64,000 nt of DNA from a virus. Taxonomy: Duplodnaviria; Heunggongvirae; Uroviricota; Caudoviricetes. Below are positions 17,937 to 18,750 of the stretch, piece after piece. The position numbers were made by a program, and so were the translations under genes. Position 1 is the first letter of the stretch, and every line of letters starts with the position of its first letter. The notes below the pieces were generated by a model that was not told the DNA's origin, searched no databases, and saw only the letters and a list, made by a program, of their open reading frames with translations. The stretch is from positions 1-64,000 of the IMG/VR virus record IMGVR_UViG_2877251553_000001. One strand, written 5' to 3'.

Positions 17937-18750
17937 TAGCGATAATTTTACTCATCATCCTTCACATCTGGCTCTGTAGACAGGGTGGTGATCACTTCTG
18001 GAGTGAATCCAGATTAAACATCTCATTGCTGATGCTTGAAGTTGAGCATCTGGCGCGCGGTAAGGGGCTGCGTTGAAATAAGAGCCAGTCATTAAAAATA
18101 CCTGGATTTAGCCTCGCATTCGCGGGGCTTTTTATTGCCATTACAAAAGCCACTCCCTACAGAGTGGCTTTGATAATGGCTTATACCCTACACGGGATAA
18201 CTTAACTGATATCCCTTTTAACGGATAAAGGTATTCAAGCCTGACACATCATGCGCTGTATCGTCGCCGTATTCCCGTATTAACAGAGACCGTAGCCCGA
18301 CGGGGAACTCCTTCTGCGAGAGTGTGCGGGAATAATCAAAAACGATGCACACCGGGTTTTTACCGCGTTTATGGTTCGCGGGTTTGTCGCTCATGCTCGC
18401 CAGTCCTGTGCGGGGGGGAAGAAACAGGATACTCACACAGATTCTTGTGGGCACGATGCTATTCCTTTCTGGATTATCCCGATGCCATTCATGCAAGGCG
18501 CTGTATCAGACGTTCGTCATGGCTGTCAGGCTGACGGGTCCTCCCGGTGGGGTGGCCTGCCACGGGGCGGGAGCGTCGCGGAAAAAGGCTAGTTTTTGAA
18601 ATTTCATTCGTCATCACCACTGCTGTAATTGATTGATATTACAGTATTTTTATTTTTGCAGTGTCGATTTTGATTGTTTTTTGTTCATCACTAACACCGT
18701 TTGCCTAAAGTTGTTCGCAAGATGCATGTTTAAAACATTCTGGAGCGGGT

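Follow-up and report, generated by a model that had tools for sequence, protein, structure and literature searches.

A probable lambda-type cos site ahead of DUF1441-type terminase genes in a lambdoid prophage of the mEp460/cdtI group

The DNA considered here is a stretch of 64 kb from a tailed phage of the Caudoviricetes (IMG/VR record IMGVR_UViG_2877251553_000001, positions 1 to 64,000; hereafter the window), in which an earlier note had flagged positions 17940-18750 as a candidate cohesive-end (cos) or packaging region. The flagged interval lies between Rz (17469-17936; Pfam Phage_lysis, 8e-29) and a gene for a 164-aa protein at 18751-19245, and we consider it very probable, judging from the sequence, that a lambda-type cos that works like the cos of phage lambda does sit there, in a lambdoid prophage of the mEp460/cdtI group. 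The site is, however, confined to 18536-~18700, about the last quarter of the interval and roughly the 215 bases that precede the terminase genes, and the ~600 bp to its left are not packaging signals. This is an ordinary lambda-style cos, of a kind already known, and our understanding of cos packaging is unchanged by it; what is mildly new is only a map of cosB for small terminases of the DUF1441 type, together with a natural swap of a packaging-specificity cassette. Offsets written as +n are counted throughout from the predicted top-strand nick, and nicks are marked by a slash.

cosQ, cosN and the predicted genome ends

A comparison with the cos sites of lambdoid phages had been proposed in the earlier note, which did not name the defining elements and passed over the segment 18536-18581, and it is exactly there that a lambda-type cosQ and cosN are found. 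For a lambda cos probe of 78 nt, the best local match anywhere in the window is at 18534-18604, with a score of 23 against 18 or less in 20 shuffles, and window 18533-18581, acGGGTCCTcccggtggggtggcctgccaCG/GGGCGGGAGCGT/CGcgg, aligns with lambda acGGGTCCTttccggtgatccgacaggttaCG/GGGCGGCGACCT/CGcgg. The cosQ heptamer is the same in both phages and lies upstream of the predicted nick by 29 nt, compared with 30 nt in lambda. Known to be highly conserved (PMC4669245), these 7 bp are kept in 12 related phages, and the DNA just upstream of them is mosaic.

The immediate context of cosN reads ...CACG/GGGCGGGAGCGT/CGCGG in the window and ...TTACG/GGGCGGCGACCT/CGCGG in lambda, which places the predicted nicks at 18564/18565 on the top strand and at 18576/18577 on the bottom strand and would leave a 12-nt 5' cohesive end, the 12-bp stagger being modelled on lambda's. 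In this end bp 1-6 are identical to those of lambda, the differences are found only at bp 7, 8, 9 and 11, and CG stands at both nicks (CG/GGGCGGGAGCGT/CG). Feiss and colleagues report conservation of cosQ, of the left half of the end and of the CG pairs beside it in lambda-like phages, and that bp 7-12 of the end vary naturally among them and tolerate mutation (PMC4669245). Since the right half, which tolerates natural variation, holds all the differences in the window, and the CG flanks are kept, the pattern supports the assignment of a cos. By our own count from the sequence, 8/16 positions of cosN are rotationally symmetric in the window, compared with 10/16 in lambda.

Placement of the nicks could be validated on Gifsy-1 of Salmonella, whose cohesive end is reported to differ from that of lambda at bp 8, 9 and 11 (PMC4669245): the same procedure run on Gifsy-1 gives GGGCGGCAGCGT, which differs from lambda at exactly those three positions and from the window by one base, at bp 7. 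In Fels-1 the corresponding cosN variant is GGGCGGCAGCGG and cosQ is degenerate (AGGTACT), while VT1-Sakai, an Stx1 phage, has, by the pattern used, the end GGGCGGGCGGG, of provisional length. As a text string, GGGCGGGAGCGT was found in no phage paper of the literature searched. The cos sites of SfI and SfIV were considered for comparison and set aside, the papers on them concerning another cos type with a 10-nt site.

From cosQ to ~18597 the DNA is nearly invariant in the 12 related sequences, and this includes most of the spacer that follows cosN at the position of the lambda I2 segment. Beyond it begins a mosaic junction with cosB, where several sequence types track the type of terS; to the left of cosQ there are at least two unrelated types of DNA. 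Two of the relatives, phages cdtI (NC_009514) and Tritos (OV696610), are identical to the window from cosQ to the spacer, GGGCGGGAGCGT included, and like it have a DUF1441 TerS (small terminase) and a gpA-type TerL (large terminase). In each deposited record the first base is the counterpart of 18565 and the first 33 nt are the identical GGGCGGGAGCGTCGCGGAAAAAGGCTAGTTTTT, and each closes with ...GGGTCCT..GCCACG, so that two genomes have been linearised at exactly the predicted position. In a Proteus relative, by comparison, no cos was found within 350 nt upstream of terS.

The surroundings of the site are also those of lambda. The predicted nick lies 186 nt from the ATG of terS, against 190 nt in lambda, and the cos stands directly upstream of terS and then of a terL of the gpA family, which is common to both phages; farther downstream are a DUF6148-like open reading frame (ORF) at the position of a head-tail adaptor and portal-like ORFs. 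In satellites of the phage-inducible chromosomal island (PICI)/EcCI kind, the cos has an rpp gene after cosQ and cosN and is without I1, R2 and R1 (PMC9026076). The site in the window is not of that kind, having full terS and terL downstream and an integration host factor (IHF) site and boxes of its own.

As a side observation, one relative (IMGVR_UViG_2778261570_000017) carries two cos sites in the same orientation, at 731-777 and 3254-3300, 2.5 kb apart. Upstream of the first is an ORF that possibly resembles single-stranded-DNA-binding proteins, between the two lie a small ORF and an apparent prohead-protease/capsid fusion gene, and the second is followed by a DUF1441 terS; the layout looks like that of a cos-bearing satellite adjoining or embedded in a helper prophage.

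cosB, the small terminase and a specificity cassette

To the right of the spacer the base composition changes abruptly, from a GC content of 0.63 at 18500-18599 to 0.31-0.37 at 18600-18750, and the AT-rich tract that had been remarked on previously is therefore real; it is cosB. On the sequence, it would hold an IHF site (I1) lying between candidate boxes for TerS. The IHF core is a perfect one, of which there are only 6 in the window, and it has the orientation of its counterparts in lambda, cdtI and Tritos, at +62 here compared with +79 in lambda and +64 in the other two, whose cores are perfect as well. Across 13 phages the start of the site ranges from +59 to +64, with positions 2, 8, 9, 10 and 12 invariant, position 1 always Y and position 13 always W, and N4-N6 varying freely. 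In addition, the T-rich tract at 18645-18657 forms, on the minus strand, an A-rich tract 5' of the core. Strong IHF sites, for example lambda H', have the same arrangement.

The boxes were aligned in eight phages from five genera, Escherichia, Salmonella, Enterobacter, Providencia and Serratia, and both the IHF consensus and the layout of the boxes are conserved across these genera. An IHF-like core lies at +62 to +64 in the aligned phages. To its left a motif search places an R3-type box at +44 to +49 in seven phages (for lambda, R3 is at +51 to +66); in the eighth, PhiR40_1, it finds no R3, but a variant box, CCACCATCATC, occupies the R3 position. To the right an inverted TGTCGA or TGATGA box, R2, is present at +96 to +100 in all eight, as is an invariant TGTTC..CA, R1, at +118 to +123. 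A repeat scan that recovers R3, R2 and R1 of lambda as its positive control gives, for R3 against R1 in the window, 7/8 positions at the best register, and it finds clean box sets with an inverted middle box in Fels-1, VT1-Sakai and PhiR40_1. Elsewhere R2 is a perfect 8/8 inverted repeat with R1 (PhiR40_1, 606R10 and Fels-1) or with R3 (VT1-Sakai and Fels-1), and it is on position and on these relatives that the R2 of the window is provisionally assigned.

The order R3-I1-R2-R1 is the common cosB layout of lambda-like phages and has been described for lambda, 21, phi80 and Gifsy-1 (PMC9026076). The window appears to keep this order in a form more compact than that of lambda, with the boxes nearer cosN (R3 at +46 vs +51, R1 at +120 vs +151). 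Lambda has three boxes with the middle one inverted, as the candidate boxes of the window would also be arranged, although its boxes, of the CGTTTCC motif, are unrelated in sequence to those of the window. Among the near parallels are Fels-1 and VT1-Sakai. The recognition helix of their DUF1441 TerS is similar (HRQTV..R), and their boxes occupy the same positions and are cleaner than those of the window (CATCATC / GATGATG / TCATCATC). We note separately that the ~55 nt between R1 and the start of terS (18694-18750) are conserved between phages of the window type and of the PhiR40 type and contain a partial palindrome, TGTTCGCAAGATGCATGTTTAAAACA; the relatives from Enterobacter and Serratia lack a counterpart, their R1 standing right against the ATG.

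What would bind these boxes is a TerS of the DUF1441 type, where lambda has Nu1. Nu1 itself is not in sight: a Pfam scan reports no Nu1 family at E <= 1, and no relative in the PDB was found by sequence. An AlphaFold2 model (pLDDT, the predicted local distance difference test score, 80.5) has an N-terminal strand-helix-helix-wing-strand-helix arrangement, for which the best Foldseek matches are winged helix-turn-helix (HTH) proteins of the MerR family, at the weak level of E >= 0.057 only. That this TerS works like Nu1 is, on the model, plausible.

The comparison of the window with PhiR40_1 bears on specificity. Per 50-nt bin, the two are 92-100% identical (mostly 100%) from Rz to terL, but 61-84% across 18597-18965, a segment comprising cosB and the first ~70 codons of terS, and in TerS most differences cluster within residues 1-65, the part that contains the HTH LNISQLAALSGVHRQTAAARL. 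The N-terminus of TerS is thus inherited together with cosB, and the sequences suggest that they are swapped as one unit. The specificity of packaging in lambda and in 21 follows the same pattern, with cosB and the DNA-binding end of TerS exchanged (PMC4669245). In both cases the module (in lambda and 21, cosB plus the N-terminus of Nu1) moves together while cosQ, cosN and the C-terminus of TerS stay constant, the swap in the window being known from sequence comparison alone.

There are further variants of the cassette among the relatives. cdtI and Tritos, identical to the window at cosN, carry a cosB and a TerS N-terminus of another type (recognition helix HRDTVKKR vs HRQTAAAR in the window; boxes TTTTCACCTG), and a different packaging specificity is therefore likely. 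Gifsy-1, for which a complex cosB has been reported (PMC9026076), has a TerS of the Nu1/phage-21 kind and boxes different from those of the window. We would propose, tentatively and at somewhat less than even odds, that the cosB boxes of DUF1441-type TerS proteins (core approximately TC[A/G]NCA[C/T], in the order R3-I1-R2-R1 and nearer cosN) define specificities distinct from those of lambda, 21, phi80 and N15; no experimental dissection of a DUF1441-type cosB was found in the literature searched.

By analogy with lambda, packaging would be initiated when TerS, through its N-terminal HTH, binds R3, the inverted R2 and R1 in the AT-rich cosB, with IHF bending the DNA at I1 between R3 and R2. 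The resulting complex at cosB would anchor the gpA-type TerL on cosN, where nicks 12 bp apart would produce the 5' overhang GGGCGGGAGCGT, and packaging would then proceed rightwards, terS first, until cosQ and cosN of the next cos on the concatemer signalled the terminating cut. The nicking, the binding of TerS to the boxes, the binding of IHF and the activity of this copy are all borrowed from the lambda precedent.

Weighing the assignment

Several observations count against a functional cos as we have drawn it. The starting points of the cdtI and Tritos records are the choices of their depositors, and support the predicted junction as depositor practice and not as proof; genome ends are not discussed in the Tritos paper. 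A further record, mEp460_4F5 (LR595868), is opened 5 nt to the left (18559/18560) and is without 3 nt (TCG) of the cohesive-end sequence present in all relatives, which is probably an imprecise end or an artefact of end assembly. In cosB, R2 is the weakest of the assignments, agreeing with R1 at only 6/9 positions in the window, and AT-rich DNA commonly contains eight-mer repeats with one mismatch. Finally, terL is frameshifted, and this copy may be inactive and the prophage not self-packaging.

The last point leads to the most serious of the alternatives, namely that the cos is a fossil in a defective prophage, no longer cut by its own terminase and used, at most, by a co-resident helper of matching specificity. 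A G run at ~19796 (19790-19800) has gone from GGGGG to GGGG, and this 1-nt deletion splits the GpA_ATPase domain between two ORFs, where close relatives have an intact gene of 2103 nt. Against such a gene in the 99%-identical E. coli TCM_B_2 prophage it is the single gap, and there are only 9 other differing positions; a single-base homopolymer change is also a typical sequencing error, so that the frameshift is either a real inactivating mutation or an error of this kind. The cos elements themselves (cosQ, cosN, spacer, IHF core and boxes) are intact and match those of the isolated phages mEp460, 569R4, cdtI and Tritos. We consider a fossil unlikely, though well worth keeping in mind. Far less probable is that the 800-bp interval is simply an accessory (moron) cassette, with packaging by headful from a pac site or from a cos elsewhere. 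It is true that two small coding sequences (CDSs) with terminator-like hairpins of their own fill 17924-18394, and that the authors of the Ayreon genome could not place a cos. Headful packaging, however, goes with large terminases of the P22, T4 or Sf6 type and no fixed ends, and TerL here is of the gpA type, a family linked to 5' cohesive ends (PMC12315714); moreover, the 64 kb contain no lambda-cos-like sequence other than the one at this place, where cdtI and Tritos were linearised. We give this alternative almost no credence.

A narrower doubt concerns I1. The inverted repeat to which the earlier note had drawn attention, CTGTAAT-TGATTGAT-ATTACAG with an N8 centre, is present, although at 18623-18644, ~9 nt to the left of the 18632-18655 given for it, and it surrounds the IHF core. 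It could in principle be a hairpin, or an operator for a dimeric regulator (of terS expression, for example), and its 9-bp stem (-8.9 kcal/mol, z = -4.3) and its location ~110 nt upstream of terS would suit such a role. Its arms, however, lack conservation in relatives that share this type of cosB (the left arm contains a mismatch in L014, and L016 is without a palindrome), whereas the consensus positions of YAA-N4-TTGATW are kept in the 13 phages while N4-N6 vary, and its position and orientation match lambda I1. With the IHF consensus conserved and the arms not, the former is the conserved feature, the palindrome being incidental; we regard an operator or hairpin as very improbable. On balance, then, a lambda-type cos that works like that of lambda remains our preferred reading.

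The DNA to the left, and what the site means

The coordinates of all the features are collected in the table below, those of the cos and terminase genes preceding those of the DNA to the left.

Table. Features of the putative cos, the terminase genes and the adjoining upstream DNA (window coordinates)
Feature	Position	Strand	Basis or remark
cosQ GGGTCCT, packaging-termination signal	18536-18542	+	identical to lambda bp 48473-48479
cosN: predicted cohesive end GGGCGGGAGCGT (18565-18576) and flanking CG dinucleotides	18563-18578	.	alignment to lambda
Spacer CGCGGAAAAAGGCTAGTTTTTGAAATTTCA between cosN and cosB	18577-18606	+	near-identical in 12 phages
Candidate R3 box GTCATCACCA, proposed primary TerS binding site	18610-18619	+	+46; direct repeat with R1
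I1: perfect IHF core TATCAATCAATTA	18626-18638	-	perfect WATCAANNNNTTR match, +62; IHF binding predicted
Candidate R2 box AGTGTCGAT (reverse complement ATCGACACT)	18660-18668	-	inverted relative to R3 and R1
Candidate R1 box TTCATCACTA	18684-18693	+	+120; direct repeat of R3
Packaging-specificity cassette: cosB and first ~70 terS codons (N-terminal HTH domain)	18597-18965	+	window vs PhiR40_1
terS, small terminase, DUF1441 type (not Nu1)	18751-19245	+	Pfam DUF1441 2.7e-41; phrog_141 'terminase small subunit' 7e-74
terL, gpA-type large terminase, split by 1-nt deletion	19245-21346	+	GpA_ATPase and GpA_nuclease domains
50-aa ORF, hydrophobic N-terminus, overlaps end of Rz	17924-18076	+	phrog_11822, E = 8.6e-38
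Intrinsic-terminator-like hairpin and T run	18110-18137	+	8-bp stem (6 G-C pairs) 18110-18129, tail TTTTTATT
Near-perfect 44-nt palindrome/hairpin	18138-18181	.	-30.1 (minus), -26.8 (plus) kcal/mol; z = -7.7, -8.8
Orphan 58-aa ORF MSDKPANHKRGKNPVCIVFDYSRTL..., coding status uncertain	18218-18394	-	PGAP CDS in close relative

The DNA from 17940 to 18535 is not cos. In it lie the 50-aa ORF, two terminator-like hairpins that converge and, on the minus strand, the orphan 58-aa ORF. The observation that ORFs overlap here on both strands was accurate, and the suggestion that they look non-coding fits some of them: those on the plus strand at 18322-18599, one of which corresponds to gp59 of mEp460, were rejected as genes, as a 1-nt indel in close relatives shifts their frame and they run across cosQ and cosN. 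In a 98.6%-identical region of E. coli, however, the NCBI pipeline PGAP does call two small CDSs, 17924-18076 (plus strand, hypothetical protein) and 18218-18394 (minus strand). For the former, the PHROG match shows only that others have called the same ORF.

The terminator-like hairpin that had been placed at 18111-18133 is real, with a stem-loop at 18110-18129 (minimum free energy -14.7 kcal/mol, z = -2.9), and forms no part of cos. As a G+C-rich stem-loop followed by a run of U it has the makings of a rho-independent terminator, and in the Ayreon and epsilon34 records a 'terminator' is annotated under the match; it is predicted to end the unit of Rz and the 50-aa ORF for RNA polymerase that is without antitermination. 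Next to it is a much stronger hairpin, at 18138-18181, to which the earlier note had not referred. On the minus strand its inner stem, GCCACTC/GAGTGGC, is followed by TTTTGT, so that it may serve as the terminator of the 58-aa ORF. In PhiR40_1 the loop of 6 nt is inverted (CCTACA vs TGTAGG), as hairpin-mediated inversion would give.

The 58-aa ORF is a more doubtful gene. Its homologues, 73/73 in Escherichia or Shigella (one of them in E. albertii), range from 35 to 91 aa with variable ends, scans at E <= 10 give no Pfam or NCBIfam family, and a search for a sigma-70 promoter found none for it. A relationship to DUF3950/YlcI was considered and rejected, the same scans giving no match. VT1-Sakai and 1720a-02, at 84-85% DNA identity, have an in-frame stop, and the core of the ORF, 18252-18359, is 82% identical as DNA to lambda 46868-46974 (969-1075 of our lambda segment, L006), an unannotated stretch between bor and lambdap78 in which no more than a decayed remnant with a broken frame survives. 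Here, then, DNA is conserved without conservation of the ORF, at a location where lambda carries morons such as bor.

RNA families were sought as well. Rfam on 17000-19500 at E <= 1 returned only STnc560 (0.54) and AbsR28 (0.58), both driven by the terminator and both rejected, and a scan of the whole window at gathering thresholds gave nothing in the region. Another candidate, sRNA-17, an ArcA-modulated small RNA (sRNA) of E. coli K1 RS218 that mEp460-like prophages carry (PMC7719688), does not belong to the interval, its sequence mapping to ~5568-5597 instead, where the plus strand (5568-5597) gives a 29/30 match to its 5' part. Elsewhere in the window the gathering thresholds pick out two pairs of isrK and C4 antisense RNA in opposite orientation, at 8009-8197 (plus) and 58264-58491 (minus), which suggests that the window has two regulatory regions of prophages, or one that has been duplicated. 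The other matches are to tRNA, IS009 RNA, int-alpA RNA and the ALIL pseudoknot (Cis-reg per Rfam), at 1369-1441, 42810-43008, 50129-50195 and 61224-61340.

What does the site mean for the phages that carry it? The 901-nt region is found at no less than 80% coverage in 761 of 5,426 complete E. coli genomes, and for this very common group of prophages the exact, if predicted, genome ends can now be placed, where the mEp460 and Ayreon records were opened arbitrarily, at terS, because the cos had not previously been located. The map of cosB for DUF1441-type TerS proteins and the natural swap of the cassette together constitute a testable map. If our tentative view of distinct specificities is right, nearly identical E. 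coli prophages would exchange 18597-18965 to change their packaging specificity and might in this way escape, for example, cross-packaging or hijacking by satellites.

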